Translations under genes and position numbers: made by a program
Source of the DNA: Terriglobia bacterium
Lineage (GTDB): Bacteria > Acidobacteriota > Terriglobia > Bryobacterales > Bryobacteraceae
Length of the DNA stretch: 64,000 bases
Assembly: GCA_963766615.1 (NCBI GenBank)
Contig: CAVYBC010000002.1
Span: 45,308-109,307, forward strand
Direction of reading: 5' to 3'
Shown: in pieces, positions 7,609-42,244 of the stretch
How the letters are laid out: every line of letters begins with the position of its first letter
Position numbering within the stretch: position 1 is the first letter of the stretch
Notes under the pieces: generated by a model
Told to the model about the DNA's origin: nothing
The model's database searches: none
The model's input: the letters and a program-made list of their open reading frames with translations, nothing else

Positions 7609-9547
7609 ATGGTAAGGTGCGCACTACTAGTAACGCTGGCCTCAGGGCTCAGCTTGTTCAGCCAGTCGAAAACTTCACCCGCGAACGGCGATTGGCCGAT
7701 GTTTCTCCACGATCTGGCGGGAACTCGCTATTCGCCGCTGACGCAGATCGATACGAAAAATGTATCGAGCCTCACCCCGGCTTGGATGTATCGCTTCAAT
7801 CGCGAGGGCAAGACGATCAAGGGTAACAGCCCGAGCGAGCTTTATCAGGAGATCACGCCGATCGTCGTGCAGGGTGTGATGTACCTGCCGGCCGGAGACC
7901 GCGTTGTCGCGCTTGACCCGGTGACGGGCAAAGAGATTTGGACGCACGAAGTGGAGGGCGGACTCGCGTCGTTTCGAGGGGTGAGTTATTGGGCGGGCGA
8001 TCGCAATAATCCGCCGCGGATCATTTATACGTCGGCACACAAGATGATCGGGTTGAACGCGAAGACGGGAACTATCGATCCGGGATTCGGGAAAGAAGGC
8101 GAGGTCCCGCTAGAGGTTGCTTACGACGGCGCGCCGACCATTTACAAAAATCTTCTGCTGATCGGCACGAACTTCTATGGTCCGGGCGACCGGCACATCA
8201 ATCCTGCGCTGGATCAAGGAGGAGGCCAGCCGGGCGATGTTCATGGCTATGATGTCCGCACGGGCAAACAGCTTTGGGAATTCCATACCATTCCGCGCCC
8301 TGGCGAACCAGGGATCGAAACCTGGCAGAAGGAAGGCAGCGGCGCAAACAGGACCGGCAATAATGTTTGGGCGTTCGCGCTTACTGTTGATGAAGAGCGC
8401 GGGATTCTTTACCTGCCTGTAAGCGGTCCGGGCGCGAACTTTTATGGCGGCGACCGGCCTGGAAATAATCTGTACGGGAATACTCTGGTTGCAGTGGACG
8501 CGCAGACGGGAAAGGTCAAGTGGAATTTCCAAACGGTTCGTCATGAACTGTGGGATTACAACCTGCCGCCCGCACCCAGCCTGATTGACATCGTGAAAGA
8601 CGGCGTGAAGATTCCGGCGCTGGTGCAGGTGGGCAAGTCGGGCTACATGTTTATCTTGAATCGCGTGACGGGTAAGCCAATTTTTGGCGTGGAAGACAGG
8701 CCCGTGGCGCAAGGCGACGTGCCGGGCGAGTGGTACGCGCCTACGCAGCCATTTCCGTTGAAGCCCCCGCCGATTTCGCGGACCAGCTTTACAAAGGACG
8801 ACTTGGTAAGGCCGGAAGACACGACGCCGGAACATGCCAAGGCATGTCTCGGATTTGTACAACAAGCTGAATCTCTATAATGGCGGTCCGTTCACTCCGT
8901 TTCTTCTTCATGAGGCGGGCGTCGCTTCCAAACCTTCGCTAGTTTTCCCTGGCTTCACCGGCGGGGCGAACTGGGGCGGAACGGCTGTCGATCCTAAGCT
9001 TGGTCTTATTTTCGTGAACACCAAGGACGCTCCGGCGGTGGGGTGGATGGAGAAGAATCCCAAGTATGTGCCTGGCAATCCGGATGGAATCGAGCCTTAT
9101 ATTAGGACCGCGCCGCAAGGGGCAGGCCAATTCAGCGCGACCGTGCGGGATTCCGCGGGCAAAGTGATTGGAAATTGGCCATGCTATCGTCCGCCGTGGG
9201 GGAGGTTGATCGCGGTGAATGCGAAGACCGGCGACTTCGCTTGGGAGGTTCCGCTCGGCGTGACGGATTCGCTGCCCGAGGGCAAACAGAACACGGGATC
9301 GACCAACAGTGCTGGTGTGATCGCCACTGCGGGCGGCCTGATCTTCGTCGGCTCGACCGCGGACTCGCGATTCCGTGCGTTCGATTCGCGGACGGGCAAG
9401 GAATTGTGGGTAACCAAGCTCGACCACACTGCGACAGCGATCCCGATGACCTATCTGGGCAAGAACGGGAAGCAATATGTCGCGATCGTGGCCGCGGCGG
9501 CCGGGCGCGGCGACAACCAGGGCCTGGTTGTTTACAGCCTGCCGTAA
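7609..9547 (+). pseudogene. PQQ-dependent dehydrogenase (glucose/quinate-like soluble quinoprotein), reading frame broken near 8848
   Basis: ORFs 7609-8880 and 8834-9547 are the two halves of one propeller protein. They join at ...TPEHAKAC | SDLYNKLNLYNGGPFTP. The C-terminal W-motif GKQYVAIVAAAAG...VVYSLP is typical of the family. Confidence 0.8.
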
Positions 9548-9628
9548 TTGATGGGCTGAATCATTTTAAGTGATAGGCCCGGTTGAGTTTGCTGCCCGGT
9601 GAAATATAATCGTACTGGCCTCAAGCTG

Positions 9629-11989
9629 ATGAAAATTTTAACGGCCAGCCTGTTCTTTAGCATTCCGATCTTGGCGCAGAGCGGGCCTCAGGTGCGCCAG
9701 ACTCTGGACAAATATTGCGTCACCTGTCACAACCAGAAGACGCGAAGCGGGTCGCTGGCGCTGGATACGATGGATTTCGGCGGAGTCCCCGAGCACGGCG
9801 ACATTTGGGAAAAGGTTGTGTTGAAACTTCGCTCGGGCACTATGCCTCCGGCAGGCATGCCGAGGCCCGACCTGGTTACGTATCGTGAAACGGCATCGTG
9901 GCTCGAAGCCAAGTTGGATACGGCTAAGCCCTACGCGGGCCGGCCGCTGCTGCACCGGATGAATCGCTCCGAATATGCAAATGCGATTCGCGACCTTCTG
10001 GATCTTCAAATAGACGTCAACGCGCTCTTGCCACCTGACGATTCCGCTTTTGGGTTTGACAATATTTCAGAATCGCTGGGTGTTTCACCTGCGCTACAGG
10101 AACGGCACTTATTAGCTGCGCTGAAGATCGCGGCGCTTGCGGTGGGAGATCCTTCTCAACCGGCCTCCAGCAAAACCTGGCGCATTCGTCAGGACCTATC
10201 GCAGAATCGCCAGGTGGAGGGCCTTCCGCCAGGAACAGTGGGCGGCACGCTGGTACGTGAGAATTTTCCGCTGGACGGCACGTATCGCCTGCAAGCCAAG
10301 CTGTACCGAACTAATTTGAATATCGTGCGCGGTTTGCAGACAGGCCACCAAGTAGAATTCAGCGTGGACGGCAAGCCTGTTTATCGGACCTCGATTGGCG
10401 GTAAGGAAGATTTGGCGGCGCTGTTTGAGAAACCAACCGATACAGGCGATGCTGTGGACGCACGCCTGAATGTGGAGGTTCCCATCACTGCCGGACCGCA
10501 CATGGTGAGCGTCGCGTTTGTGCAGAACGCGCAGTTTGCTGAGCCGGTGCGGTTGCAATCGTTCTTGCGCAGTTCGGTGGACAACTTCGATTGGGCCGGT
10601 GATCCGCATCTTCAAACACTGACGGTGAGCGGGCCGTTTCACCAAACTGGCGCGGGCGATACACCCAGCCGGAAACGCATCTTTACTTGCCGTCCGCAGA
10701 GCCCTTCTAAAGAGGAAGTCTGTGCGCGGACCATCGTCACTACGCTTTTGAAACATGCCTATCGTCAGCAGCCGACGGCTCCCGAGATTCAGCAGGTGAT
10801 GGCATTCTACTCGGCTGGACGCCGCGGCGGGACTTTTGATAGCGGCATTCAGGGTGCATTGGAACGCATCTTAGCGAGCCCACGATTCCTATTCCGCGTT
10901 GAACACGAACCGGAGGGGATTGCGGCGGGCGATTTGTATCCGGTCTCGGGCGTCGAACTGGCGTCGCGGCTTTCCTTCTTCTTGTGGAGCAGCATCCCCG
11001 ACGATACGCTGCTGGACCTGGCAGGCCAGAACAAGTTGAAGGGTACGGCTGCGCTCGACGCACAAGTTCGCCGCATGCTGGCCGATCCGCGAGCCGAGTC
11101 GCTGGTGACCAACTTCGCGGGCCAATGGCTGCAGTTGCGCAACCTGGATCACTTCCAGCCCAACACCGATATATTCCCGGATTTCGACGATAATCTTCGG
11201 CAGGCGTTCATACGGGAAACACAACTTTTATTTCAGAGTGTGGTGCAAGAAGACCGCAGCGTACTGGACCTGATGACGGCCGATTACACATTTGTCAACG
11301 AACGGCTGGCGAAGCATTACGGAATTTCCGGCATTTATGGCAGCCGCTTTCGCCGTGTTCCTGTTTCGGACGAAGCTCGCAAAGGCTTGCTGGGGCAGGG
11401 AAGCATCTTGGCCTTGACCTCGCATGCCGAGCGCACTTCTCCGGTTGTCCGAGGCAAATGGGTTTTGGAGAATTTGTTAGGCCTCGAAGTTCCGCCGCCG
11501 CCTCCCGACGTTCCCCTGCTCAAGGAGAGGAAGGAAGGCGAGAAGCCGCGCACGATGCGCGAACAGATGGCGGAGCATCGAGCCAACCCGGTGTGTGCGG
11601 CGTGCCACAAGACGCTGGACCCGATCGGTTTCGCGCTGGAAAACTTCGATGCGGTAGGCGCTTGGCGTAACGACGATGCCGGCAATCCGATTGATGCTAG
11701 CGGAGTGCTGGCGGATGGCACGAAGGTCGACGGGGCGGTGGAGCTAAAAAACGGGTTGTTGAGCCGGCCTGAGAATTTCGTCACCGCTCTTACGAAGAAA
11801 CTCTTGACCTATGCTTTGGGCCGGGGGCTCGATGAGCGCGATATGCCGCAGGTGCGCACCATTGTGCAAGCAGCGGCGAAGGATAATTATCGCTTTTCGA
11901 GCCTGGTTCTGGGCATCACGCGGAGCACGCCGTTCCGCATGAGCACCGCGGTTGGCCCGATTCAAGAGGAACAGGTCGCGAAGAAGTGA
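9629..11989 (+). CDS. DUF1592/DUF1595/DUF1587/DUF1588/DUF1585-type exported protein with two CxxCH motifs (copy 1)
   Basis: Signal peptide MKILTASLFFSIPILAQ, an N-terminal CVTCH and a C-terminal CAACH. The architecture matches the planctomycete PSCyt/PSD-type family, recognised from memory. The 9599 GTG is an alternative start. Confidence 0.8.
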   Translation: MKILTASLFFSIPILAQSGPQVRQTLDKYCVTCHNQKTRSGSLALDTMDFGGVPEHGDIWEKVVLKLRSGTMPPAGMPRPDLVTYRETASWLEAKLDTAKPYAGRPLLHRMNRSEYANAIRDLLDLQIDVNALLPPDDSAFGFDNISESLGVSPALQERHLLAALKIAALAVGDPSQPASSKTWRIRQDLSQNRQVEGLPPGTVGGTLVRENFPLDGTYRLQAKLYRTNLNIVRGLQTGHQVEFSVDGKPVYRTSIGGKEDLAALFEKPTDTGDAVDARLNVEVPITAGPHMVSVAFVQNAQFAEPVRLQSFLRSSVDNFDWAGDPHLQTLTVSGPFHQTGAGDTPSRKRIFTCRPQSPSKEEVCARTIVTTLLKHAYRQQPTAPEIQQVMAFYSAGRRGGTFDSGIQGALERILASPRFLFRVEHEPEGIAAGDLYPVSGVELASRLSFFLWSSIPDDTLLDLAGQNKLKGTAALDAQVRRMLADPRAESLVTNFAGQWLQLRNLDHFQPNTDIFPDFDDNLRQAFIRETQLLFQSVVQEDRSVLDLMTADYTFVNERLAKHYGISGIYGSRFRRVPVSDEARKGLLGQGSILALTSHAERTSPVVRGKWVLENLLGLEVPPPPPDVPLLKERKEGEKPRTMREQMAEHRANPVCAACHKTLDPIGFALENFDAVGAWRNDDAGNPIDASGVLADGTKVDGAVELKNGLLSRPENFVTALTKKLLTYALGRGLDERDMPQVRTIVQAAAKDNYRFSSLVLGITRSTPFRMSTAVGPIQEEQVAKK

Positions 11990-11996
11990 GGATTTC

Positions 11997-13310
11997 ATGT
12001 TTGTAAGCAAGCTCGCTCTTTCACGCCGCACAATTTTGCGAGGAGCGGGCTCCGTCATTGCGCTGCCGTTTTTGGATGCGATGATTCCAGCCCTGACGGC
12101 CGCTGCCGCACCGCGTCTTCGTTTCGGAGCGGTCTATTTTCCCAATGGCGCGATCATGCAGCAGTTCACGCCCAAAACATTCGGCAGCGACTTTGAATTT
12201 ACGCCCATCCTGAAGCCACTGGAGCCGTTCAAAGAAAATCTTGTTGTGGTGACCAACCTCACGCGTTCGCATCCGGGCAGCCAGGTAGGCGATCATGCGG
12301 TGAGCGCCGCGGGATTTCTCACGGGCGTGTGGCCCAAGCGCACAGAAGCCGAAGATGTGCTGGCGAACACCACCATCGATCAGGTTGTGGCGCAGAAGAT
12401 CGGGCAGGAAACGCCGCTGCCTTCGCTGGAACTCGCGACAGAAGATTTTTCGGGCTACGTGGGAGGGTGCTCGCCGGGCTTCAGTTGCTCCTACATGAAT
12501 ACGATTTCGTGGAGCTCGCCTAAGACGCCTCTGCCCATGGAGACGAATCCACGCGCGGTGTTCGAGCGGCTTTTCGGCGAACCGGGCACGCCGGAGCAGC
12601 GCCACGCGCGGCTGGAGAAGCAGCGCAGCATTCTGGATTCGCTGGCCTCCGACACGAAAGATCTGGAACGAACGCTGGGGCCGCGCGACCGGGCCCGCGT
12701 GAGCGATTATCTGGACAACATCCGCGAGCTGGAGCGGCGCCTTCAGCAGACCGAAACGCGCAGCGCGACTGAGACGTCGCTGGAAGCTCCTATCGGGACA
12801 CCGGATAATTTTGACAGCCACGTGCCCATGATGTTCGATCTGGCCGCGGCGGCTTTTCAGGCAGATGTCACGCGTGTGTTCACCTTCATGATGTCGCGCG
12901 AGCTGAGCCAGAGGACTTATCCGCAGATCGGCGTGGGAGAGCAGCATCATTCTGTTTCCCATCATTTGAACGATCCAAAGAAGATGGCCACCATGGTGAA
13001 GATCAACACTTACTATGCGGGGCTGTACGCGAAGTTTCTGGAGAAACTCCGGTCGACACCGGATGGAGATGGGTCCGTGCTGGATCACTCGCTGCTGGTT
13101 TACGGCGCGGGGATGGCGGATTCGAATGGCCATGCTACCGATCCGCTACCTATGGTCTTGATTGGCGGCGGCGCGGGTAAAGGGCAGCGTCATGTGCAGC
13201 TTCCTACGCGGACACCGATCGGAAATTTGTGGCGCAACGTGGCGGAGACGTTCGGGGCTCCACAGGAACAATTCGGCGATAGCACGGGGAAGACGGATGT
13301 CCTGGCGTAA
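11997..13310 (+). CDS. DUF1552-family protein with twin-arginine signal (copy 1)
   Basis: Starts MFVSKLALSRRTILRGAGSVIALPFLDAM, which is Tat-like. It is the conserved partner of DUF1592-type genes. The ATG lies 8 nt after the upstream stop. Confidence 0.8.
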   Translation: MFVSKLALSRRTILRGAGSVIALPFLDAMIPALTAAAAPRLRFGAVYFPNGAIMQQFTPKTFGSDFEFTPILKPLEPFKENLVVVTNLTRSHPGSQVGDHAVSAAGFLTGVWPKRTEAEDVLANTTIDQVVAQKIGQETPLPSLELATEDFSGYVGGCSPGFSCSYMNTISWSSPKTPLPMETNPRAVFERLFGEPGTPEQRHARLEKQRSILDSLASDTKDLERTLGPRDRARVSDYLDNIRELERRLQQTETRSATETSLEAPIGTPDNFDSHVPMMFDLAAAAFQADVTRVFTFMMSRELSQRTYPQIGVGEQHHSVSHHLNDPKKMATMVKINTYYAGLYAKFLEKLRSTPDGDGSVLDHSLLVYGAGMADSNGHATDPLPMVLIGGGAGKGQRHVQLPTRTPIGNLWRNVAETFGAPQEQFGDSTGKTDVLA

Positions 13311-14790
13311 GGCCATCGCCGCGTTGATTGTCTGTGTGGGGCTGAATGCGGCCACGCTGAAGGAAGCTGTGGATGCCGGCGATCGCCAGACTGTTCAGGC
13401 GCTGCTGAAAGCCCATGCCGATGTGAATGCCGCGGCTCCCGACGGCGGTACGCCTCTGCTCTGGGCTGTGGGTAATGGCGATCTGGAAACTGCTCGGCTG
13501 CTGCTGCAGGCGGGGGCCAACGCGAAGGCAACCAACCGCTTCGGGGTTACGCCGCTATGGCTGGCGGCTATGAATCGCGACGTGAAGATGGCTCAAGCGC
13601 TTTTGAAAGCTAGAGCCGACGCGAACGCTGTTCTTCCAGGCGGGGAGACGATCCTCATGGAAGCTTCGCGCACCGGTAGCGGCGAATTGGTGGAACTGCT
13701 GTTGAAGAGCGGGGCCAACATCGCTGCGGCGGATCCGTCCTTTGGAGAGACGGCGCTAATGGTGGCGGCTGCCCAAAATCAGGGCGATGCGGTTCGCGTG
13801 TTGCTGAGTCATGACGCGGGTGTGAACAGCCGCACCGTCGCTCTGACATATAACAAGGATCGCTTCGGCCTGGAGGGCGTTCTGACTATCCTTCCGCACG
13901 GGAGTTGGACTCCGCTGATGTATGCGGCGCGCGAGGGAGCAATGGATTCGGTTCGGGTGCTCTGCGAGTCGGGCGCGGACTTGAACCTGGCCGATCCGGA
14001 CGGGTCCACTGCGCTGCTGCTTGCCATCGAGAATGGTCACTACGATACGGCCGCGTTGCTGCTGGAAAAAGGTGCTGACCCTAACCGGGGCGATTCGACG
14101 GGGATGGCTGCGCTTTATGCGGCGGTCGATATGAATACTTTGGGTGAGGTTTTTGGACGGCCCAATCGGGTGTCGCCCGACCACCTTTCTGCGCTTGGAC
14201 TGATGAAGGTCCTGCTGGATCGGGGAGCGAACCCGAATCAGGGATTGAAGAGCGCTACCCTGCAGCGTGCGCATACGCCGGGCGAGCCGACCCTGCAAGC
14301 GGGAGCGACTCCCATTGCAAGGGCTGCGCGCGCGGGTGATGTGGCTTCCATCGAGTTGCTGATCGCGCATGGCGGAGATGTTTCTCTGCCTCTTAAGAAC
14401 GGAACGACGGCGCTGATGTTCGCTGCCGGGCTCGGCCGGGGCGTCAGCGCGTTTGCCAAAGATTACGGGACCGAAGGGGATCTGCTTGCCGCGGCTCGGG
14501 TGCTGCTGGCGCATGGCGCCGATGTCAACGCGATCAGCGCGGCGGGCCAGACTGCGATGCACTTCGCCGCTCAGGCCGCCGACGCGAATTTTCCGCAGCC
14601 TTCCGATGACATGGTGAAATTTCTCGCCGCACATGGAGCTAAGCTCGACGTGGTGGATAAGCAAGGACGGTCGCCGATTGAAATGGCTCAGGGCAAGGGC
14701 CTGCGAGGACGAGCTGGAGGACCGGTGAAGCCTCGCGAAGGGACGATCGCGCTATTGGGCCAGTTGAAGACAGCGTCCGCCACGCATTGA
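13297..14790 (+). CDS. exported ankyrin-repeat protein (copy 1)
   Basis: Signal peptide MSWRKAIAALIVCVGLNA followed by more than 8 ANK repeats (G.TPL..A......V..LL..GA..N). The start overlaps the DUF1552 stop by 14 nt. Confidence 0.8.
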   Translation: MSWRKAIAALIVCVGLNAATLKEAVDAGDRQTVQALLKAHADVNAAAPDGGTPLLWAVGNGDLETARLLLQAGANAKATNRFGVTPLWLAAMNRDVKMAQALLKARADANAVLPGGETILMEASRTGSGELVELLLKSGANIAAADPSFGETALMVAAAQNQGDAVRVLLSHDAGVNSRTVALTYNKDRFGLEGVLTILPHGSWTPLMYAAREGAMDSVRVLCESGADLNLADPDGSTALLLAIENGHYDTAALLLEKGADPNRGDSTGMAALYAAVDMNTLGEVFGRPNRVSPDHLSALGLMKVLLDRGANPNQGLKSATLQRAHTPGEPTLQAGATPIARAARAGDVASIELLIAHGGDVSLPLKNGTTALMFAAGLGRGVSAFAKDYGTEGDLLAAARVLLAHGADVNAISAAGQTAMHFAAQAADANFPQPSDDMVKFLAAHGAKLDVVDKQGRSPIEMAQGKGLRGRAGGPVKPREGTIALLGQLKTASATH

Positions 14791-14823
14791 TCGTGATGCG
14801 AACCATCAACCAGGAGAAGGTAG

Positions 14824-15986
14824 CTAGTGTGGTGCGTCACTCAGATGCGACCTTATCCAGGGTACGACGGGCGCGAGTGACTTTTTCGAGGATATCCGAG
14901 GCCTTCGCCGTCCAGATGAAGGGTTTTGGCGCTTGGTTGTAATTCTGGATGTAGTCTTCGATAGCGGAGATTAGTTCGGGAACGCTTCGGAAAACACCAC
15001 GTCGAATCCGGTTCTCTGTGATGTCGCGAAAGAAGCGCTCGATCATATTGAGCCAAGAAGCACTGGTTGGCGTGAAATGCATGTGGACGCGCTTGTTCCG
15101 CCCCAGCCACGCTTTGACCGCCGGGTGTTTATGCGGTGAGTAGTTGTCGGCGATCACGTGGATGTGCTTTTCCTTGGGAGTATTACGGATGATCAGGCGA
15201 AGGAACGCTAACCAGTCTTCGTTGGTATGGCGGGGACGGCACTGACTGAGGACCTCGCCGGTGAGGACGTTGAGAGCCGCGAATAACGTGGTGGTTCCAT
15301 GGCGTTTGTAGTCGTGCGTCATGGTGCCCTTGCGGCCTTTCTTCATCGGCAAACCGGGCTGGGTACGATCCAAAGCTTGAATCTGGCTCTTCTCGTCCAC
15401 CGAGAATACGATGGCCTGCTGCGGTGGGTTCAAGTACAGCCCGACGATGTCTTCGAGTTTTTCAACGAACTGCGGATCGCGGCTGACTTTGAAGGTATCG
15501 ACCAGATGCGGCTTGAGCCCGTGGGCATGCCAGGCGCGTCGAACAGTAGCCTCGCTGATTCCCAAAACGCGGGCCAGGGTGCGGGTGGTCCAATGGGTCG
15601 CATGCGCTGGCTTTTCCTGCGTTGTTTTCCGGATGATTTCGTCCGGATTGATGGTTCGAGTTCTTCCTGGTCGGGGCGCATCTTTCTCAATTCCGGCCAT
15701 GCCGTACTGCAAAAATCGCGCTCTCCATCGTGCAACCGTGTGGCGCCCGAGTTGAAGCGCAGAGGCGATTTCCTGGTCTCGCTTTCCTTCGGCTGCTTGC
15801 AGGATGATGTTGGCTCGCTCCACCAATCGCAAAGCAACTGACCGGCGCCGCGCGTAGGCTGACAACTCGGATCTTTGCTCCTCCGTCAAAACAACTTGGG
15901 CGGCAACTCGCATTCGGGCTCGTCTCCTATTAAGACAAACCCGATTGGTTTGTATAAGTAGCGCTATTTACGACGCACTACACTAG
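14824..15986 (-). mobile_element. IS630-family insertion sequence, intact
   Basis: Terminal inverted repeats are CTAGTGTGGTGCGTC (14824-) and the reverse complement CTAGTGTAGTGCGTC (-15986). TA occurs at both junctions, consistent with IS630 TA target duplication. There is a single transposase ORF. Confidence 0.85.
14837..15913 (-). CDS. IS630-family DDE transposase
   Basis: 358 aa with an N-terminal HTH region and a DDE region (VFSVDEKSQIQAL...IHVIADNYSPHKH...WLNMIERFFRDIT). Confidence 0.9.
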   Translation of the reverse strand: MRVAAQVVLTEEQRSELSAYARRRSVALRLVERANIILQAAEGKRDQEIASALQLGRHTVARWRARFLQYGMAGIEKDAPRPGRTRTINPDEIIRKTTQEKPAHATHWTTRTLARVLGISEATVRRAWHAHGLKPHLVDTFKVSRDPQFVEKLEDIVGLYLNPPQQAIVFSVDEKSQIQALDRTQPGLPMKKGRKGTMTHDYKRHGTTTLFAALNVLTGEVLSQCRPRHTNEDWLAFLRLIIRNTPKEKHIHVIADNYSPHKHPAVKAWLGRNKRVHMHFTPTSASWLNMIERFFRDITENRIRRGVFRSVPELISAIEDYIQNYNQAPKPFIWTAKASDILEKVTRARRTLDKVASE

Positions 15987-16009
15987 TTGCATAGGTTATC
16001 GGGCGCATT

Positions 16010-16303
16010 GTGGTTGACACTAGACTCGCTGTGCAGCTTTGGGTGATTGGCGCGGTCCTTGGCATCGCCGGATGGGCCTTGTTCATTCGAATGGCCGTCG
16101 AGCTGAACCGGGCATTGCCTCCCGGGAAAAGACTGCCGCTCATACGGTTTCGCGAAAACCTGGATCATATCAAACGACTGCATGGTGACTACTTTCCTAA
16201 TAGCGTTGTGCGCCTGTGGGCATTCCTTCTGATTGCAGCATCCGCTAGCTTGTCCGCGACTGGCGTGATTGTTGGCGTGATTGCGGGCTCGAAGCACTGG
16301 TAA
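16010..16303 (+). CDS. hypothetical small membrane protein (two predicted TM helices)
   Basis: 97-aa ORF with a non-ATG start and two hydrophobic stretches (LWVIGAVLGIAGWALFI and LWAFLLIAASASLSATGVIVGVIAG). I recognise no homology. Confidence 0.35.
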   Translation: MVDTRLAVQLWVIGAVLGIAGWALFIRMAVELNRALPPGKRLPLIRFRENLDHIKRLHGDYFPNSVVRLWAFLLIAASASLSATGVIVGVIAGSKHW

Positions 16304-16309
16304 GCCTCG

Positions 16310-16332
16310 GGTCGCGCGACCTGCATGCAGGT
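16310..16332. promoter_or_regulatory. two overlapping perfect palindromes (GGTCGCGCGACC 16310-16321; ACCTGCATGCAGGT 16319-16332) upstream of module copy 2
   Basis: Read directly. The second palindrome shares the TGCATGCA core with the 5431 and 5506 palindromes. Confidence 0.25.
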
Positions 16333-16422
16333 TTCCCAATGTCCGTTTAAATGATGCCAGGAATCAGTTTGGATGATAGTCCACCCTTTGAGTTTCACAA
16401 CAGCTAAGCGTATACTTCTCAT

Positions 16423-18798
16423 GTGTTTATAAATCGCCGAGTCTTAGCGATCTCGATCTTCTGTATGTCTGGCTCGGCCTTGTGGGCCGATGCTGGGCAA
16501 CCGCAACGGTATACAGAGCTCACCAAGACTTATTGTGTGAAATGCCATAACGATAAGGCTAAGATCGGGGGGCTTTCCCTGCAGTCTGCCGACGTTGAGA
16601 ATGTCCCAAAGTCGGCTGAAACGTGGGAAAAAGTGATCCGCAAGATCCGCACTGGGGCGATGCCGCCGCAGGGAGTTACGCGTCCGCCCGCTGCAGAATT
16701 AGATGGGTTCGCCGGCTATCTGGAAACCTCGCTCGATAAGGCTGCCTCGGCGAAAATGAGTCCTGGCCGGTCGCCTCTTCGGCGGCTGAATCGGGCCGAA
16801 TATTCGAACGCGATTCGCGACCTGCTGAACCTGGATATCGATGTCTCCGATACGCTTCCAGCGGACGACGAAAGCAACGGGTTTGACAACATCGCCGACG
16901 CATTGCGATTCTCGCCGTCGTTGATGGAGCATTATTTGTCGGCATCCTGGAACATCAGCCGCCTGGCGGTGGGCAACCCTCAGGTTGCGCCTTCGACCTC
17001 GACGTATCGTGTCCGGCCGGACCTATCGCAGGATCAGCATATTGAAGGGTTGCCGCTGGGGAGCCGGGGAGGCATCGCCGTCCGCCACAATTTCCCCGTG
17101 GATGGCGATTACGTTCTGAAAGCGCGGCTCTGGCGCAACACTTTTGATTTATTGCGAGGCATGGAAGATCCGCACGAGATTGAGATCGCGATGGATGGGG
17201 CGCGGTTGACGTCGGTCACCATCGGCGGTCATGAGGATTTCGTCAAGATGGCGGCAAATCCCGGCGAGTTTGGAGCGGCGCTCGATCAGAAATTGACGGT
17301 TCGCACTCCGGTGAAGGCGGGTCCTCACATGGTGACGGCTACCACGATTCTGCGCAGCCACGCCGTCCGTGACGATCTGATCAAGCCTTTTATCCGGACG
17401 ACCATTGATGGCCTGGATATTACCGGAGATCCGTCGATGGACCGGCTGACAATTGAAGGTCCCAGCAATGCGAAGGGAGCCAATCAGACGCCCTCCCAAA
17501 AGCGCATTTTTGTGTGCCACCCGGAAAATCAATCGCAGGAATTGCCTTGCGCGAGGAAGATACTATCGGCTCTGTCTCAACATGCTTATCGCCGTCCCGT
17601 GAAGGATGCCGACATGGAACAGTTGCTGACATTCTTCCAGCGGGGCCGCAACAACAAGGGGACCTTCGAAGCGGGTATCGAGTCGGCGTTGCAGTTGATT
17701 CTGGCCAACCCGGAATTCCTGTTCCGCTTTGAGGACGAGCCTGCGGGCGCGCCGGGGGTGGTTTATCGGATCGACGATATTGCGCTGGCGTCGCGATTAT
17801 CGTTCTTTCTGTGGAGCTCGGTTCCGGACGATCAGCTTATGGCGCTAGCGGTGAAGGACAAGCTGAAAGATCCCGCCGTGCTGGACGCGCAGGTTCGCCG
17901 GATGCTGGCCGATCCTAAGGCTAATGCGCTGGTGGATAACTTCGCGGAGCAGTGGTTGTTTCTGAGGAATCTGAAAAACTCGGCTCCGAACATGACGGAG
18001 TTTCCGGACTTCGACGATAATCTGCGGCAGGCCATGAAGGAAGAAACCAAGCTTTTCTTCCTCAGCATCATGCATGAGGATCGCAGCATTATCGACCTGC
18101 TGAACGCGGATTATACGTTCATCAATGAGCGGCTGGCGCGGCATTACGGTATTCCTAACATTTATGGAAGCCAGTTCCGGCGGGTCTCGGTCACCGATCC
18201 AAGGCGGCGCGGCCTTTTAGGGCAGGCGAGCATCCTCACTGTTACTTCGTATCCGAACCGGACGTCTCCGGTGCAGCGCGGTAAGTGGATTCTCACCAAC
18301 ATTCTGGGAACTCCCCCGACGCCGCCTCCACCTGGTGTGCCCGAATTGAAGGAAAGTGGGGCAAATGCCCCTACGACTTTGCGGGAACGGATGGAAGCTC
18401 ATCGGGCCGATGCGGTCTGTGCCGGATGCCACAAGGTGATGGACCCGATTGGGTTCTCGCTCGAAAACTTTGATGCCATCGGACGGTGGCGCGCTTCGGA
18501 TGAAGGCGCAAAGATCGACCCGAGCGGAGTTCTTTATAACGGAATGAAGGTTTCGGGACCTGAGGATTTGCGGGCCATGTTAACGGCTCGGCCCGAGAAC
18601 TTTGCGGGCATCGCAGTGGAGCGGTTATTGACCTATGGAATCGGGCGCGGGCTTGACTATAGCGATATGCCGATGGTGCGGAAGATTGTCAGTCAGGCCG
18701 CTGGTCAGAACTTCCGTTTCTCGTCGCTGATTCTTGGGATTGTGGATAGCCCGGCGTTCCAGATGAAAGAGCACAAGACGCAAATTGCTTCGCGTTGA
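16423..18798 (+). CDS. DUF1592-type exported protein with two CxxCH motifs (copy 2)
   Basis: 791 aa with a GTG start, containing CVKCH and CAGCH. It is collinear with copy 1 at roughly half identity by eye. Confidence 0.8.
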   Translation: MFINRRVLAISIFCMSGSALWADAGQPQRYTELTKTYCVKCHNDKAKIGGLSLQSADVENVPKSAETWEKVIRKIRTGAMPPQGVTRPPAAELDGFAGYLETSLDKAASAKMSPGRSPLRRLNRAEYSNAIRDLLNLDIDVSDTLPADDESNGFDNIADALRFSPSLMEHYLSASWNISRLAVGNPQVAPSTSTYRVRPDLSQDQHIEGLPLGSRGGIAVRHNFPVDGDYVLKARLWRNTFDLLRGMEDPHEIEIAMDGARLTSVTIGGHEDFVKMAANPGEFGAALDQKLTVRTPVKAGPHMVTATTILRSHAVRDDLIKPFIRTTIDGLDITGDPSMDRLTIEGPSNAKGANQTPSQKRIFVCHPENQSQELPCARKILSALSQHAYRRPVKDADMEQLLTFFQRGRNNKGTFEAGIESALQLILANPEFLFRFEDEPAGAPGVVYRIDDIALASRLSFFLWSSVPDDQLMALAVKDKLKDPAVLDAQVRRMLADPKANALVDNFAEQWLFLRNLKNSAPNMTEFPDFDDNLRQAMKEETKLFFLSIMHEDRSIIDLLNADYTFINERLARHYGIPNIYGSQFRRVSVTDPRRRGLLGQASILTVTSYPNRTSPVQRGKWILTNILGTPPTPPPPGVPELKESGANAPTTLRERMEAHRADAVCAGCHKVMDPIGFSLENFDAIGRWRASDEGAKIDPSGVLYNGMKVSGPEDLRAMLTARPENFAGIAVERLLTYGIGRGLDYSDMPMVRKIVSQAAGQNFRFSSLILGIVDSPAFQMKEHKTQIASR

Positions 18799-18810
18799 TC
18801 GGAGATTAGC

Positions 18811-20160
18811 ATGACGTTTATTACTAAGAAACATCTTTCCAGACGCACGGTGCTGCGCGGCTTGGGCGTATCGCTATCACTTCCGCTTCTTGACTCGATG
18901 CTGCCCGCGCAGACGCCATTGGGGAAGACTGCCGCGAAGCCCAAAGTGCGGTTGGCGTTGTGCTACATCCCACATGGCGGGGTCATGGCGAATTGGACCC
19001 CGGCGGCCCAGGGCGACAAGTTTGAGGTGTCGCGTATTCTCATGCCGCTTGCACCCTATCGCGACAACGTGGTGGTGGTGAGCAACCTCGCTCACGCGAT
19101 GGCTGCGCCGGGTGGGCCGGGCGATAATGGCGGCGATCATACGCGCTCGCCTGCGGTCTTTCTGAATGGCGTGCATCCGAAACGCACGGACGGAGCGGAT
19201 ATTCGAGCCGGGGTCACGATCGACCAGATCGCGGCGGCGCAGCTTGGCCAGGAGACACCGATCCCGTCGATGGAGCTTGCCATCGAGGATTTCAGCGGTC
19301 TGGTGGGTTCTTGCGACGTTGGATTCAGTTGCGCCTACATGAATACGATTTCCTGGCGCACGCCGACCACGCCGCTTCCCATGGAGATCAATCCTCGCGC
19401 CGTATTTCATCGCATGTTCGGCGACGGAGCCACGGCGGAGGAACGTCAGGAGCGCATCGCGCAGCAGCGCAGCATTCTGGACGCGGTGACGGGGCAGACT
19501 CGCAAACTGGAAAACGAGCTTGGCGCAGCGGACCGGTCACGGGTCGCCGAATATCTCGACTCGGTGCGCGAGGTGGAGCGTCGAATCGAGCTTTCGGAAA
19601 AACAAACTCAGGGTACGGCCGAGGTGCCGGAGTCTCCCGTCGGCATTCCGGACGCACACGACGTGCACACCAAGCTGATGTTCGACCTGATGACCATCGC
19701 GTTTCAGACCGACCTGACTCGCATCGCGACCTTCATGATGGCGCGCGAGGTGAGTTACCGCACGTTCCCGATGCTGGGAATCGCCGAGGGCTTCCATCCG
19801 GCATCGCACCACCAGAACAACGCGGACCGGCTAGAGAATCTCACAAAGATCAATACCTATCACGTCAGCCTGGCGGCGCATTTCCTGGAACGGCTGAAGG
19901 CAACGCAAGACGGCGACGGCACGCTGCTGGATCATTCGCTGATTCTCTACGGGTCGGGAATGAGTAACAGCAACATCCACAATCATTCGCCGCTGCCTGT
20001 GTTTGTCGCGGGCGGCGCGGCAGGCCGGTTGAAGGGTGGCCGCCATCTGCTGTATCCCGAAAATACGCCGATGTCGAACCTGCTGCTTTCGATCCTGCAA
20101 AAATCGGGAGTTGCTATCGATAGTGTTGGTGATTCAACTGGGCCGTTGACGGAGCTTTAA
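18811..20160 (+). CDS. DUF1552-family protein with twin-arginine signal (copy 2)
   Basis: Starts MTFITKKHLSRRTVLRGLGVSLSLPLLDSM, has a GGAGA RBS, and is collinear with copy 1. Confidence 0.8.
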   Translation: MTFITKKHLSRRTVLRGLGVSLSLPLLDSMLPAQTPLGKTAAKPKVRLALCYIPHGGVMANWTPAAQGDKFEVSRILMPLAPYRDNVVVVSNLAHAMAAPGGPGDNGGDHTRSPAVFLNGVHPKRTDGADIRAGVTIDQIAAAQLGQETPIPSMELAIEDFSGLVGSCDVGFSCAYMNTISWRTPTTPLPMEINPRAVFHRMFGDGATAEERQERIAQQRSILDAVTGQTRKLENELGAADRSRVAEYLDSVREVERRIELSEKQTQGTAEVPESPVGIPDAHDVHTKLMFDLMTIAFQTDLTRIATFMMAREVSYRTFPMLGIAEGFHPASHHQNNADRLENLTKINTYHVSLAAHFLERLKATQDGDGTLLDHSLILYGSGMSNSNIHNHSPLPVFVAGGAAGRLKGGRHLLYPENTPMSNLLLSILQKSGVAIDSVGDSTGPLTEL

Positions 20161-20161
20161 A

Positions 20162-21689
20162 ATGCGAAATCGAATCTTCATTCTGCTCGCGGGCGCTTTG
20201 ACGCTGGCGGCGCAAGTTCCCAGCGGATCGGCGCAGGTTGCCGACGCGGCTCAAATTCGCGATACCGACAGCTTGCGGCGGCTATTGGCCCAGCACGCCA
20301 ACCCGAGTGTCGCGCAGCCGGATGGAACTACGGCGCTGCATTGGGCGGCGCACTGGAATGATGTCGGACTCGGTGAAACTTCTCTTGAAGGCTGGGGCGG
20401 ATGTGAAAGCGGTGAACCGGTTTGGCGCGAGTCCTCTGTCTGAGGCTGCCGGAGGCGGGAATGCAGAAATCGTCAACGCATTGCTGGCGGCGGGAGCCGA
20501 TGCGCGCACGCTGACGACCAAAGACGGCGAAACTGTCCTCATGACAGCGGCTCGCGGCGGCTATCTGGACGTGGTTAAAGCGCTGGCTGCGCATGGCGCC
20601 GATGTCAACGCGCAGGAGCATTACAAATCGCAGACCGCTTTAATGTGGGCCGCGGCCGATGGCCATGCCGACGTGGTCAAGTTCCTGCTGGATCACGGCG
20701 CGGACTGGAAGGTGCAATCCTCCTCGCGCGAAAGCAAAATACCCAAGCTGAGCGCTGCTTCGTCGGTCACGCCGATGTCGCGCGGCGGCCTTACGGCTCT
20801 GCATTTTTCGGCTCGTGAAGGCGACGTCAAGTCGGCCGGATATATGTTGGATGCGGGAGCGGACATCAATATCGGAGATGGGGATGGAACCAGTCCTTTG
20901 ACGGTTGCGATTCTGAACAAGCACTACACGTTCGCGAAGTTTATGCTGGATCGCGGCGCCAACCCGAATGTCGCTGACGTTCGCGGAGAGGAGTCGCTTT
21001 ACGCGACTCTCGATATGCGTAACGAAGATTATTCGGCGCTGCCTTTGCGTAAGGGGGATGATCCGGTATCCACTACGGAGATGCTCCGGGCGCTGCTGAA
21101 GCATGGTGCGGACCCGAACGCGGCGCTGACAAAGAACCTGCCGGGGAAAAGCGGTATGGATGCGGGCGATACGAGCCTGGACAAAGGGACGACTCCTCTG
21201 ATGCGGGCTGCCCGCGCAGGCGACGTCCCTGCAATGGAATTACTGCTGGCGGCGGGTGCCGATCCCAAGAAAATTACTGCCGAAGGAAATGACATCCTGT
21301 TGTTTGCAGCCGGCGTCGGCTATCGGGACAAGAGCACCTATGGCGATGAAGCAGCCGCGCTGGCGGCGGTGAAACTTGCGCTGAAGCTAGGCTTGGACCT
21401 GAATCGTACTAACAACAAGGGCGAGATCGCGCTGCACGGTGCGGCATTTCGGGGAGCCGATACCATCGTTGCCTTTCTGGCTGAGCAAGGGGCTTCCCCG
21501 AATGCCAAAAACAAACAGGGGATGACGATTCTGGATTACGCCATGGGCAAGGCGGTGCTGTTCCAGTTGCCAGTGCCGCATGACAGCACGGTAGAACTGG
21601 TTCGCAAGCTTGGGGGAGTGGAAGGGAAAGCCCCGAGCGCCCCGGTCACCGCTGTCAGCAATAAGGGCGTCGTCAGAGACGATCATTAA
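20162..21689 (+). pseudogene. exported ankyrin-repeat protein (copy 2), reading frame broken near 20366
   Basis: ORF 20162-20443 carries the signal peptide and first ANK repeat. It continues in ORF 20238-21689 at ...ALHWAAHWNDV | DSVKLLLKAGADV. GTCGGAC is found where GTCGAC would keep the frame. Confidence 0.75.
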
Positions 21690-21767: not shown

Positions 21768-22670
21768 TTGCGGGTATTCTGTTGCCCTAGAACAGAAATG
21801 AACGCCCACGTATTGCGCGCTCGCGCTCTGCCTAAAGTTGAGCGTGAGCAAGTCTTTTGGAAATCGGCGAAAGTTGGCTGGCTCGGGCCCGCTCATCAGC
21901 CCATGACTCTGATTACGTTCGTCAACGGGAAGAAAGGCCACGGCTTCGCCCGTTTCGCTCCGAATGGCTCGACTGAGGAACAACTACGGGCTCTTCGAGC
22001 ATATATTGAAACCATGGGATGTCCGAAGCGGATCGCGACAGCGGAAGGGTTGGGTACCATGAGTCAACTGCCGCGGGCGTTGAAGGAACTGGGAGTTTTG
22101 TGGGCTTCGCAGAACCAACCGCCGGCGGACGGAGTTTCAGCGCGACTTTTCCGTGATATTCAAGTGCGGATTGTGCCGTCGTTCCAGGAAGCCGGAATAT
22201 CGACGATCGAAAAGGCCAATCGCTTTTTGGACCAAGTCTATTTGCCTCGATGGAATTCCCGCAGAGAGCCGGCCAACTTCGAAGCCAACCAGCCAGCGCC
22301 GTCGAATGAAGATTTGGACTCAATCCTGAGCGTGGTGACTCTCCGCGTATTGAATAGCAGAAACGTACTTCGCTACAAGAATCGAACTTATGGAATGCCT
22401 CCGGGCGCGGTTCCTCGGGGACCGGGGGGATCGGTCATCCGAATTGAAGCGCGTTTGGACGGAGGCGTGCGATTCCGGCTGGCGGATCAAAATGTTCCCA
22501 TCGAATTAATAGAACGGGACGCTGCTCATCAGGCGGCTGCTCATCAGGCATTGGGGGAAGGCAAGAAAGCCAAGAAGCCGCGGAAAATCGGCGGATACAA
22601 CCGGTCGTGGATGAAAGGTTTCCTGGACCGTCCGGCGCCGCAATTGTGGAAATCTTTCGGCTCCGTTTAA
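21768..22670 (+). pseudogene. decayed, N-terminally truncated transposase relic (ISNCY-like rve-type integrase family)
   Basis: It keeps family-like blocks (ALKELGVLWASQ..., AGISTIEKANRFLDQVYLPRWNSR, and a C-terminal RLDGG segment). It lacks the N-terminal HTH and the SPQAKGR-type catalytic block, and I found no terminal repeats. Confidence 0.45.
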
Positions 22671-22774: not shown

Positions 22775-23581
22775 TTGTTGAAACATTTTATAACCCCTTG
22801 TAGCGGATTAATTCTCATGGCGGCGGCAGTGTTGCCTATACAGACTTGGGCGCAGGAAGCGCCTGCAGCTCCAAAACCGGCTGCAGCAGCGGAAGGAGCG
22901 GCCCCCGCGCGAGCTCCTCGTGGTCCTCAGCCTCCCACTGGTCCTGCACCTCGCACTGCCGACGGGAAGGTGGATTTCAGCGGCAATTGGGCGCCGAATG
23001 CGATCCGGCAGAATATTAATCTGGCCTCGGTGGGCGGCGAACCGGAAATGGCGCCCTGGGCCCTGAAGGTCTATCAGGAACACAAAACCAACATTTCCAA
23101 AGACGATCCGGAAGCGCGCTGCCTTCCTCCCGGAGTGCCGCGTATGAGCACCACTCCGTACCCGTGGACGATGATTCAGACTCCGAAAATGGTCGTGATC
23201 GTCTACGAGGGCGGAGCGCATATCTGGCGGAAGATCTTTTTGGATGGCAGGCCCCACGATCCGAACGCAGTGGAAACGTGGCTGGGCGATTCCACGGGCC
23301 ATTGGGAAGACAATGACACCTTGGTGGTTGAAACAGTTGGTCAAAATGCGATCACTTGGTTGGACGAAGATGGACATCCTCACACGAACAACATGGTGGT
23401 GACAGAAAAATTCCGCCGTCCTGATATGGGCCATCTGGAAATCGAACACGAGATTAAGGATCCGGAGGCTTATCCCAAGGGTTGGAAATTCACCACTCAT
23501 CCCACCATGCTGAATGGCGAATTGATCGAGTACATCTGCCAGGAAAACAACCGCGACGTCCAGCATCTGCAAGGCAAGTAG
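22775..23581 (+). CDS. exported protein of an uncharacterised family (paralog 1 of 4 in this window)
   Basis: TTG start 8 nt after AGGAG, a signal peptide and a Pro/Ala-rich linker. Conserved blocks are DFSGNW, ARCLPPGVP, WLGDSTGHWEDNTLVVET and EYICQEN. Confidence 0.7.
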   Translation: MLKHFITPCSGLILMAAAVLPIQTWAQEAPAAPKPAAAAEGAAPARAPRGPQPPTGPAPRTADGKVDFSGNWAPNAIRQNINLASVGGEPEMAPWALKVYQEHKTNISKDDPEARCLPPGVPRMSTTPYPWTMIQTPKMVVIVYEGGAHIWRKIFLDGRPHDPNAVETWLGDSTGHWEDNDTLVVETVGQNAITWLDEDGHPHTNNMVVTEKFRRPDMGHLEIEHEIKDPEAYPKGWKFTTHPTMLNGELIEYICQENNRDVQHLQGK

Positions 23582-23585
23582 TCTC

Positions 23586-24002
23586 ATGAAAGTGAAGTTG
23601 ATGATCGCTGTGGCGGCGGGGTTACTCTGTGCGGGCATCCCGCTGGCCGCTCATCATTCGTTTGCGGCGGAGTACGACGGCACCAAACCCATCACCTTGA
23701 AAGGCAAGGTGAACAGGATGGAGTGGGTAAATCCTCATTCGTGGGTTTATGTCGACGTGACGGATGCGAGCGGCAAAGTGACCACCTGGGCCTGTGAAAC
23801 CGCGCCGCCGAATGGCCTTTACCGGCAAGGCTGGCGAAAAGACAGCTTAAAGGCTGGGGATGAAGTGACCATTGAAGGATTCCTCGCCAAGGACGGAACG
23901 CCAACCATGAATGCGCGATCGGTCACCATGGCGGATGGTCGCAGAATGTTTGCGGGCAGTTCAGGCGACGGCGGGCCCGAGGCGAAATCCAATTCCAAGT
24001 AG
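23586..24002 (+). CDS. small exported DUF6152-like protein, predicted mature N-terminus HHSF (copy 1)
   Basis: 138 aa. The signal peptide ends PLAA and is followed by HHSFAAEYD. It contains the conserved motif MEWVNPHSW. The ATG lies 5 nt after the upstream stop. Confidence 0.75.
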   Translation: MKVKLMIAVAAGLLCAGIPLAAHHSFAAEYDGTKPITLKGKVNRMEWVNPHSWVYVDVTDASGKVTTWACETAPPNGLYRQGWRKDSLKAGDEVTIEGFLAKDGTPTMNARSVTMADGRRMFAGSSGDGGPEAKSNSK

Positions 24003-41900: not shown

Positions 41901-42240
41901 CTTTGCCAATGATGAACGCGCGGCCATTCCTCTGGCTCGCGATGCGATGCTTTCGGCCGGGTACGCGCGTATCCGCCCTGTGCTGATGACCGCGTCGGCG
42001 ATGATACTGGGTATGCTGCCCATGGCTCTGAGCCTGGGTGAGGGCGGAGAGCAGAACGCTCCTCTGGGTCGCGCTGTAATCGGCGGGCTGCTGGGGGCTA
42101 CCGTCACGACACTATTCGTGGTCCCCATCTTCTACAGCTATCTGCGCAACAAGCCTCCCGTGGATCAGGAGCGCCGTCTGGAAGAGGAAGAACACAACGA
42201 AACCTTGGCGGCTGAATTGGATTTGATGGAGAAAGCTTAG
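38902..42240 (+). CDS. RND efflux transporter permease (AcrB/CzcA superfamily)
   Basis: 1112 aa. Starts MWIVRLALRRPYTFVVMAVLIAILG and has the 12-TM/2-loop architecture. The conserved TM4 region is GLALAVGILVDDATVEIEN. Confidence 0.9.
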   Translation: MWIVRLALRRPYTFVVMAVLIAILGGAAIWTMPVDIFPYIDIPIVSIVWQYSGLSPEEMESRIVTNFERALTSNVEDIEHIESQSHQSIAVVRVYFHPNVQVDLALSQIVTQCQVQVRNMPPGTFPPQVLKYDAASVPILQLGLSSKTLKEQEIFDLANNFVRTPLATVQGANVSYPFGGKNRQIMVDLNLHELFAKQLSPIDVSNALNLQNLILPAGTAKFAQTEYPVRLNSSPTVLSDFNNLPIKTVNGATIYMKDVATVHDGFTPQQNIVRTNGSRGVLLTVTRNGKASTLAIVNAVKNAMPKVMSTVTQDLKLSIFGDQSVFVRASVEGVLRETLIAAFLTGTVILLFLGSWRSTFIVCISIPLSILTSICLLSLLGQTINVMTLGGLALAVGILVDDATVEIENTHRNLGMGKRLVKAVLDGASQIAVPTLVSTLSICIVFVPVLLLTGTARYLFTPLAMAVVFAMLASYMLSRTLVPTLVHHLLGSEAEMYRSGGHGGKGFLWAVHRGVNNLFERLRYRYMGLLDFSLRHRGPVLLTFLIFSFGSFFLVRLIGEDFFPDVDAGQIRLHARTAAGTRIEETEVRMAEVEKEIRAALPAGEVETILENIGIPNAWGSIAQGDVPNIAATDGEILISLNHDKHGPVREYEVMLRKRLQERFPGMIFFFEPANITNQILNFGLPAPIDLQVTGRDTANNFKIASRLKDRIERIPGAADVHIHQVYKQPQLNVNVDRVKAGGLGLTQRDVTSSVLISLSGNNQVAPSFWLNPANGVSYNVGVQTSQYRIDSLDALLRTPITAASSDVNTTTAGSTAGVASMGNASVGASPSGASQAYGNPGALTNPTQLLSNLVDVQRSYGQVIVNHYNVAPVFDIYANVDRRDLGSVGREVEKIVQEEQFHLPRGTTFNMRGEYETMQSSFVRLGLGMAFAVILVYLLMAVNFQSWLDPFIILTALPGAIAGILWMLFVTGTTLSVPSLMGSIMCVGVATANSILLVTFANDERAAIPLARDAMLSAGYARIRPVLMTASAMILGMLPMALSLGEGGEQNAPLGRAVIGGLLGATVTTLFVVPIFYSYLRNKPPVDQERRLEEEEHNETLAAELDLMEKA

Positions 42241-42244
42241 GCGA

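Follow-up and report, generated by a model that had tools for sequence, protein, structure and literature searches.

Organization of the two triads

The stretch of DNA analysed here (hereafter, the window) comprises 64,000 nucleotides of contig CAVYBC010000002.1 (positions 45,308 to 109,307) from a Terriglobia bacterium of the Bryobacteraceae (assembly GCA_963766615.1). It carries two collinear sets of three genes on the + strand, in identical order, which encode a large protein with two CxxCH motifs (BIG), a DUF1552 protein, and an exported ankyrin-repeat protein (ANK). Triad 1 occupies positions 9629-14790 and triad 2 positions 16423-21689 (Table 1). A first-pass annotation of the window had described the same triad as occurring twice, in one order and on one strand, and both the coordinates of the open reading frames (ORFs) and the Pfam matches agree with this description. 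The two copies, which it had judged collinear and roughly half identical, share 51% identity in BIG (E=0), 50% in DUF1552 (4e-164), and 37% in ANK (1e-67) by pairwise BLASTP, and the alignments of all three proteins are collinear over the full length, far beyond chance. The motif strings that it had quoted (CVTCH and CAACH, CVKCH and CAGCH, SRRTILRG and SRRTVLRG) are exact. The term "tandem", also used there, fits the common order and strand, but the copies are 1.6 kb apart and an IS630-family insertion sequence (IS) lies between them.

The genes of each triad are tightly packed, as had been proposed, with a 7-nt gap between BIG1 and its DUF1552 gene, a 14-nt overlap between DUF1552 and ANK1, a 12-nt gap between BIG2 and its DUF1552 gene, and a 1-nt gap between DUF1552 and ANK2. 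Although promoter and terminator scans of the window are at background level overall, sigma-70-like sites with the same -35 hexamer precede both triads, i.e., TTGAGT-16-TATAAT (9583-9610) and TTGAGT-17-TATACT (16388-16416). These sites end 18 nt (triad 1) and 6 nt (triad 2) before the start codon, implying very short or no leaders, and the first of them favours ATG 9629 as the start of BIG1. No Rfam or tRNA features were found in the window. As a close relative for comparison we have used L001, a 357-kb metagenome contig that is 90-97% identical to the window in this region and carries both triads.

Table 1. Coordinates of the features of the window, numbered from its first nucleotide.
Feature	Position	Strand	Description
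Large protein, copy 1 (BIG1)	9629 (ATG)-11989	+	786 aa, Sec signal, two CxxCH; assigned by Pfam and motifs
BIG1, alternative start	GTG 9599	+	796-aa version
CVTCH	9716-9730	+	N-terminal motif of BIG1
CAACH	11594-11608	+	Second motif of BIG1
DUF1552, copy 1	11997-13310	+	437 aa, PF07586, HxxSHH
Twin-arginine translocation (Tat) motif SRRTILRG	12021-12044	+	DUF1552 copy 1
Ankyrin protein, copy 1 (ANK1)	13297-14790	+	497 aa, ~12 ankyrin repeats with long insertions
Large protein, copy 2 (BIG2)	16423-18798	+	791 aa, BIG1 paralogue
CVKCH	16534-16548	+	N-terminal motif of BIG2
CAGCH	18418-18432	+	Second motif of BIG2
DUF1552, copy 2	18811-20160	+	449 aa, PF07586
Tat motif SRRTVLRG	18838-18861	+	DUF1552 copy 2
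Ankyrin protein, copy 2 (ANK2)	20162-21689	+	Split by a frameshift; stitched product 508 aa
IS630-family element	14827-15983	-	Transposase 14837-15913; not part of the module
Insertion in pyrroloquinoline quinone (PQQ) dehydrogenase	6431	-	428 aa vs 572 aa in L001
Insertion in PQQ dehydrogenase	8851		Split into 7609-8880 and 8834-9547 vs 645 aa in L001
Insertion in tannase	25781		385 aa vs 530 aa in L001

Conservation of the ankyrin gene next to the DUF1592-DUF1552 pair

The gene neighbourhood was examined in pattern-seeded, similarity-ranked samples of loci. The genome scan took one genome per species and gave 79 loci at 52-83% DUF1552 identity, to which L002 and L003 were added; the metagenome scan was seeded on the DUF1552 protein of a Novosphingobium. 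The ANK gene lies directly downstream of the DUF1552 gene, on the same strand, in 134 of the 144 assessable loci (42-83% identity), that is, in 76 of 80 genome loci, with one more divergently upstream, and in 58 of 64 metagenome loci, with three more divergent. A plasmid search also detected the triad in a cultured alphaproteobacterium, Novosphingobium sp. KACC 22771, whose megaplasmid NZ_CP117882.1 carries it at about 943,533-948,515 with 41% identity. Seen from the other side, three ANK homologues traced to their contigs (P0001, P0108, and P0118; 7 places) all lie directly after a DUF1592-type and a DUF1552 gene.

The flanking genes are otherwise unrelated from locus to locus, and no general conserved fourth gene emerged among 1,489 clustered flanking ORFs, the top cluster, DUF6152, being present in 30 loci. 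Between the end of the DUF1552 match and the ANK start, the median distance is 15 nt (interquartile range -7 to 47); L002 and L003 show the 14-nt overlap of triad 1 as well. Moreover, the three genes diverge together: ANK identity to the two copies of the window rises and falls with that of DUF1552 (Spearman 0.92; for BIG, 0.88; n=72), and 68 of the 72 typeable loci have their best match to one and the same window paralogue for all three genes. The literature that we found on DUF1552 or DUF1592 does not mention an ankyrin partner, in agreement with the first-pass annotation, which had regarded it as undescribed.

The gene order and the sequences taken together make it, on balance, probable that the genes of each triad form an operon whose three products are exported and work jointly, the ankyrin protein binding a partner. 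The triad would thus represent a clade-specific three-gene elaboration of the widespread PSCyt3/DUF1592-DUF1552 pair. As a variation of the arrangement, the large gene is followed by a tandem of two DUF1552 genes in L063, L068, and L080, where the ankyrin gene comes next, and in L176, where it does not.

Some genomes contain orthologues that are closer to copy 2 of the window (57-61%) than copy 2 is to copy 1 (50%), and copy-2-type loci are found on other contigs than the copy-1-type locus of the same genome (L008/L070, L013/L072, and L023/L084), indicating that the two lineages are old paralogues. By this comparison, the duplication is much older than the window locus. The first-pass annotation was right about an old duplication; the frameshift in ANK2 described below is a limit on its interpretation. 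There are often several triads per genome in this group, and clusters of them, side by side or convergent, recur in L001, L050, L051, L053, L056, L062, L055, L058, and L081.

The large di-CxxCH protein

BIG1 and BIG2 match, in this order, the Pfam families PSCyt1/Cytochrome_CBB3, PSD3, PSD5, PSD4 (DUF1592), PSCyt3 (DUF1588), and PSD2 (DUF1585); PSD3, PSD5, PSD4, PSCyt3, and PSD2 all score above their gathering thresholds, with E-values of 1e-17 to 1e-49. These domains, the CxxCH motif within PSCyt3, and the adjacent DUF1552 gene place both proteins in group III, PSCyt3/DUF1592-type, of the "planctomycete-specific cytochromes". Nearly all of the sampled loci likewise have the large gene next to a DUF1552 gene. 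Conservation of the two CxxCH motifs, on which the first-pass annotation had made its proposal depend, was borne out by the alignment of 74 large proteins: the PSCyt3 motif (C666/C669/H670) is invariant in all 74, distant members included, and the N-terminal motif is present in 70-71, the exceptions being split or truncated genes. After the N-terminal CxxCH stands a GxMPP motif, which is characteristic of a Met axial ligand and may supply one here as well. Judging from these motifs, the large protein most likely carries two covalently bound c-type haems. Sequence searches with single proteins or profiles found no relative of the large protein or of DUF1552 in the PDB, and NCBIfam has no model for either.

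The DUF1552 protein

Both copies match PF07586 above the gathering score (E 2e-94 for copy 1 and 1.3e-96 for copy 2). The family is large, with 16,703 clusters at 50% identity matching at E<=1e-3. Both copies present a twin-arginine motif (S/T-R-R-x-F/L-L/K plus a hydrophobic stretch), so that export through the Tat pathway is predicted from sequence; R10 and R11 are at least 90% conserved, and the RR motif is present in 98 of 109 family representatives. When 15 DUF1552 proteins were scanned against Pfam at E<=10, TAT_signal was matched by 4 of them, and no other additional family was found.

An AlphaFold2 model computed from a multiple sequence alignment (MSA) of 99 sequences from two clades reached a predicted local distance difference test (pLDDT) score of 75 and a predicted template modelling (pTM) score of 0.82. 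When this model was compared with the PDB by Foldseek, the top 50 matches all belonged to the alkaline-phosphatase superfamily (best E 1.6e-4, prob 1.0), and 8 of them had E<=1e-3. The matched structures include sulfamidase, LtaS/LtaP, choline and carbohydrate sulfatases, phosphonate monoester hydrolase, YejM, phosphoglycerate mutase, and autotaxin. A model built from 40 close homologues had a pLDDT of 45, and its Foldseek matches, which were not significant (E>=0.3), were also headed by an alkaline-phosphatase-superfamily enzyme. With moderate confidence, the core fold of the model can be assigned to the alkaline-phosphatase superfamily. H100, D128, H318, D363, and H379 are conserved family-wide. 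The HxxSHH motif corresponds to H318-S-V-S321-H322-H323 in copy 1; none of H318, H322, and H323 varies among 163 clade members, the conservation of H322 and H323 holding within the clade.

DUF1552 does not belong to the type I (formylglycine) sulfatases: the 15 proteins scanned gave no Pfam Sulfatase match even at E<=10, and the sole C-x-P stretch, CSPGF in copy 1 (CDVGF in copy 2), contains no Arg. No homology is claimed to DUF1501, which is presumably also filed in the alkaline-phosphatase clan of Pfam; an hhalign comparison of the DUF1552 profile with one DUF1501 protein was not significant (E 0.017, probability 2.6%) and aligned only the C-terminal strand/metal region.

The stretch CSPGF is part of a Cys158-x5-Cys164 loop (CSPGFSC in copy 1, window positions 12468-12488; CDVGFSC in copy 2) that is invariant in the sampled clade (163/163) and absent from four distant DUF1552 proteins without an ankyrin neighbour. 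The loop was found in 120 of 120 acidobacterial and 0 of 120 planctomycete homologues, and in the model it is a surface loop of low confidence. A disulfide in a Tat substrate would be unusual. We rejected the loop as a strict marker of ankyrin docking, given that P0388 lacks it yet has ANK downstream and that one of the scan patterns contained the motif.

The ankyrin protein

Both ankyrin proteins match Ank_2 of Pfam (E 5e-61 and 4e-53), with 5-7 matched stretches per model. The best 120 homologues of ANK1 measure ~380-555 aa, most of them ~500, share 59-95% identity with it, and come from Bryobacteraceae and other Acidobacteriota assemblies; the ANKs of the sampled loci measure 440-530 aa. 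These proteins are not Dot/Icm ankyrin effectors of the Legionella/Coxiella type, for which the best NCBIfam score was 110 bits against a cut-off of 600, with matches at the level of the repeats.

ANK1 starts with a Sec-type signal, MSWRKAIAALIVCVGLNAA. In ANK2, the 5' ORF (20162-20443) encodes the signal peptide, MRNRIFILLAGALTLAAQ, and the first repeat, and the remainder is read in a different frame (20238-21689). With respect to L001, whose second ankyrin gene is intact and encodes 512 aa, the window carries an additional base at 20366; deleting this base restores a 508-aa ANK2 with its signal peptide, and it is this product that is 37% identical to ANK1. Accordingly, the Sec signals that the first-pass annotation had attributed to each ankyrin protein are both present, but ANK2 is not a single reading frame in the window. 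Across the sampled loci, a simple hydropathy rule detected a hydrophobic signal-like N-terminus in 120 of 134 ANK ORFs, and most of the failures have such a segment further in.

Ankyrin proteins that accompany a haem enzyme have been described. Cj1386 of Campylobacter jejuni, which contains ankyrin repeats and is encoded downstream of katA, is reported to traffic haem to the catalase and to be needed for its full activity (Flint, 2012, cited in PMC4518328), and Pseudomonas aeruginosa has a katB-ankB operon (Ochsner, 2000). These precedents, and the presence in the triad of a protein with two haem-attachment motifs, would be consistent with ANK being a haem/metal trafficking or maturation factor for its neighbours. 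We consider such a role quite improbable: the 115 aligned ANKs show no conserved Cys/His/Met signature, and there is no catalase around the triads, either in the window or in the related loci, so that they do not belong to the catalase-associated ankyrins. In addition, the Tat route of DUF1552 implies that its cofactor is loaded in the cytoplasm, whereas ANK is Sec-exported. As for the haems of the large protein, dedicated maturation systems attach c-type haem covalently and are not known to require an ankyrin chaperone.

Proposed function of the triad

In the operon reading favoured above, the large protein would be exported by Sec and would hold its haems in the N-terminal class-I-like cytochrome c domain (CxxCH...GxMPP) and in PSCyt3. 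DUF1552 would be exported folded via Tat and is probably a metal-dependent catalytic subunit, because it combines an alkaline-phosphatase/sulfatase-type core with the conserved residues H100, D128, H318, H322/H323, D363, and H379. Such a fold would narrow the chemistry to reactions on phosphate, sulfate or similar esters, which would be hydrolysed or transferred with the help of a metal and in some way linked to haem. The ankyrin solenoid of ~500 aa would be Sec-exported; its most likely role in the periplasm is that of an adaptor or stabiliser, an accessory subunit in stoichiometric amount that attaches to one of the two other proteins. Since the DUF1552 and ANK genes overlap, DUF1552 is the better candidate for this partner.

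A more specific form of this proposal, possible but rather doubtful, is that a periplasmic haem-metalloenzyme complex, based on the alkaline-phosphatase fold, requires the ankyrin protein as a structural subunit that docks the Tat-exported protein onto the dihaem protein or gives specificity for a substrate or partner. If true, soil Acidobacteriota would abound in an exported enzyme system of a kind new for bacteria, and each paralogous triad would be a separate specificity variant.

A different role for the same partner is suggested by Bd3460 of Bdellovibrio, an ankyrin protein that inhibits two endopeptidases (the predator's own DD-endopeptidases) through a conserved epitope and whose gene lies next to that of its target (PMC4686830). 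By analogy, ANK might be a guard or inhibitor that holds the exported DUF1552 enzyme, or the haem protein, inactive in the periplasm of the producer until substrate or release. The ANK gene likewise adjoins, and is tightly coupled with, the gene of a putative hydrolase-fold protein; every paralogous enzyme keeps its own ANK; and ANK evolves faster than its neighbours (37% vs 50% between the paralogues), as binders often do. On the other hand, the ANKs are large (~12 repeats, 440-530 aa), unlike a small inhibitor, most DUF1552 pairs have no ANK, so that the enzyme is not generally self-toxic, and the loci bear no sign of secretion beyond the periplasm or of antagonism. We therefore regard a guard function as unlikely.

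Several of our own results weigh against the reading of a three-protein exported system. Regarding conservation, the samples were seeded and ranked in such a way that their percentages are no unbiased census. The ANK gene is absent from all four distant pairs analysed, those of Chondrinema (Bacteroidota; 30%), Planctomyces sp. SH-PL62 (33%), Aquisphaera giovannonii (34%), and Sphingobium (28%), as well as from 4 of 5 assessable intermediate representatives (36-49% identity), and within the clade it is missing at L039, L046, L061, L132, L135, and L159. The ankyrin gene thus marks a subfamily and not the whole DUF1552 family, and the synteny expected by the first-pass annotation, although borne out in other genomes, holds in one clade only. 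Regarding the proteins, the alignment of 115 ankyrins shows generic repeat conservation only, with no ligand-like signature. The Foldseek matches of DUF1552 have modest template modelling scores (0.3-0.46), which are explained by a helical insertion of ~170 residues in the model, and the MSA behind the model amounts to only ~3 effective clusters. No conserved Ser/Thr/Cys nucleophile or C/SxPxR motif was identified in DUF1552. The main difficulty is that the enzymes of the alkaline-phosphatase fold are hydrolases or transferases, not redox enzymes, which leaves the role of an invariant haem partner unexplained; we know of no precedent for a redox link of this fold to a dihaem protein.

The absence of ANK from many related pairs and from a few loci of the clade, its divergent upstream position in four loci, and the generic binding capacity of ankyrin repeats would also fit an ankyrin protein that acts on something else, e.g., another envelope protein, and only shares a promoter with the pair, with no three-protein complex being formed. 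We give this little credence, because the adjacency is kept down to ~40% DUF1552 identity, in at least two phyla and amid unrelated flanks, because the genes diverge in concert and in matching paralogue types, because start and stop codons overlap, and because the ANK homologues on the contigs examined are all beside DUF1552. A joint function of the three exported proteins is the interpretation that we retain.

Neighbouring genes and recent changes in the window

A link between the triads and the adjacent PQQ dehydrogenases was rejected, since these are not conserved in other loci. Downstream of triad 2, an ORF (21768-22670) that is 90% conserved in L001 shows a weak match to ISNCY-family transposases (93 bits, cut-off 250). 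It is followed by genes for a 268-aa secreted protein with no Pfam match (22775-23581) and a 138-aa DUF6152 protein with the predicted mature N-terminus HHSF (23586-24002). Homologues of one or both, frequently in more than one copy and without a fixed strand, are found at no more than 5 kb from the triad in ~30 of 81 genome loci and in a single metagenome locus, L128. Further away, the region 38902-43597 encodes a resistance-nodulation-division (RND) efflux pump (AcrB-type, 1112 aa) and a membrane-fusion protein, a pair that also occurs downstream of the triad of L003, an unrelated locus.

The element between the triads belongs to the IS630 family, with a DDE_3 match (E 8e-23), helix-turn-helix domains, 12-nt terminal inverted repeats that differ at one position (GTGTGGTGCGTC / GTGTAGTGCGTC), and TA on both sides. 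It is absent from L001, and so are ~320 bp beside it (15990-16315), which include an ORF of 97 aa (16010-16303) with two hydrophobic stretches and no family match.

The extra base in ANK2 is one of four uncompensated 1-nt insertions with respect to L001 (6431, 8851, 20366, and 25781), each of which breaks an otherwise conserved gene. In three of the four, the base added is a G that follows a C. Either the assembly is in error at these sites or the genes have become pseudogenes very recently.

Comparison with known systems

The closest counterpart of the triad is the PSCyt3-type gene of Planctomycetota and Verrucomicrobiota paired with an adjacent uncharacterised family, for which it was stated that "nothing known about their functions" is available (He et al., 2017; PMC5615132). 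The window shares with this PSCyt3/PSD + DUF1552 pair the Pfam architecture of the large protein, with PSCyt1 at the N-terminus, the DUF1552 gene immediately after it, and a second CxxCH that is invariant even in distant members. It differs in the exported ankyrin gene downstream, in the Cys-x5-Cys loop of DUF1552 that the four distant pairs lack, and, with respect to planctomycete-type pairs, in its compact large proteins (~790 aa) without extra carbohydrate-binding or other modules.

A parallel arrangement is the DUF1501 + PSCyt1/PSCyt2/PSD1 module of the Planctomycetes-Verrucomicrobia-Chlamydiae (PVC) bacteria, which occurs in many copies per genome and has been proposed to play a role in electron transport (Kamneva et al., 2012; PMC3542564). 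There too, the gene of a Sec-type protein with cytochrome c motifs adjoins the gene of a twin-arginine protein and the set is duplicated, but both partners belong to other Pfam families and no ankyrin partner has been described.

As to the ankyrin protein, the triads resemble KatA-Cj1386 and katB-ankB in that an ankyrin gene keeps company with the gene of a haem protein. They differ in that the haems would be of c-type, the ANKs are far longer, and the ankyrin gene is coupled to the DUF1552 gene and not to that of the haem protein. With Bd3460 they share an ankyrin gene beside the gene of an exported enzyme; however, the target of Bd3460 is a peptidoglycan DD-endopeptidase in a predator, and neither such an enzyme nor a sign of that lifestyle is found here. 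To our knowledge, few exported ankyrin proteins of free-living bacteria have a defined partner, and for this reason the partner is itself of interest. The ankyrin protein also provides a natural handle for co-purification, and hence a built-in test of complex formation.

The predicted core fold of DUF1552 resembles that of the alkaline-phosphatase superfamily (type I sulfatases, LtaS/EptA-type transferases, and phosphonate monoester hydrolases), but DUF1552 has no sequence-level relation to these enzymes and presents the long helical insertion and a His-rich HxxSHH instead of C/S-x-P-x-R. The modules that combine PSCyt/PSD cytochromes with DUF1501 or DUF1552 have long been recognised as conserved, highly duplicated, and uncharacterised (PMC3542564, PMC5615132). 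To this picture the present analysis adds the placement of DUF1552, by predicted fold, in the alkaline-phosphatase superfamily, and a fixed third component in a large clade, one often met in soil Acidobacteriota and also represented in a cultured Novosphingobium.

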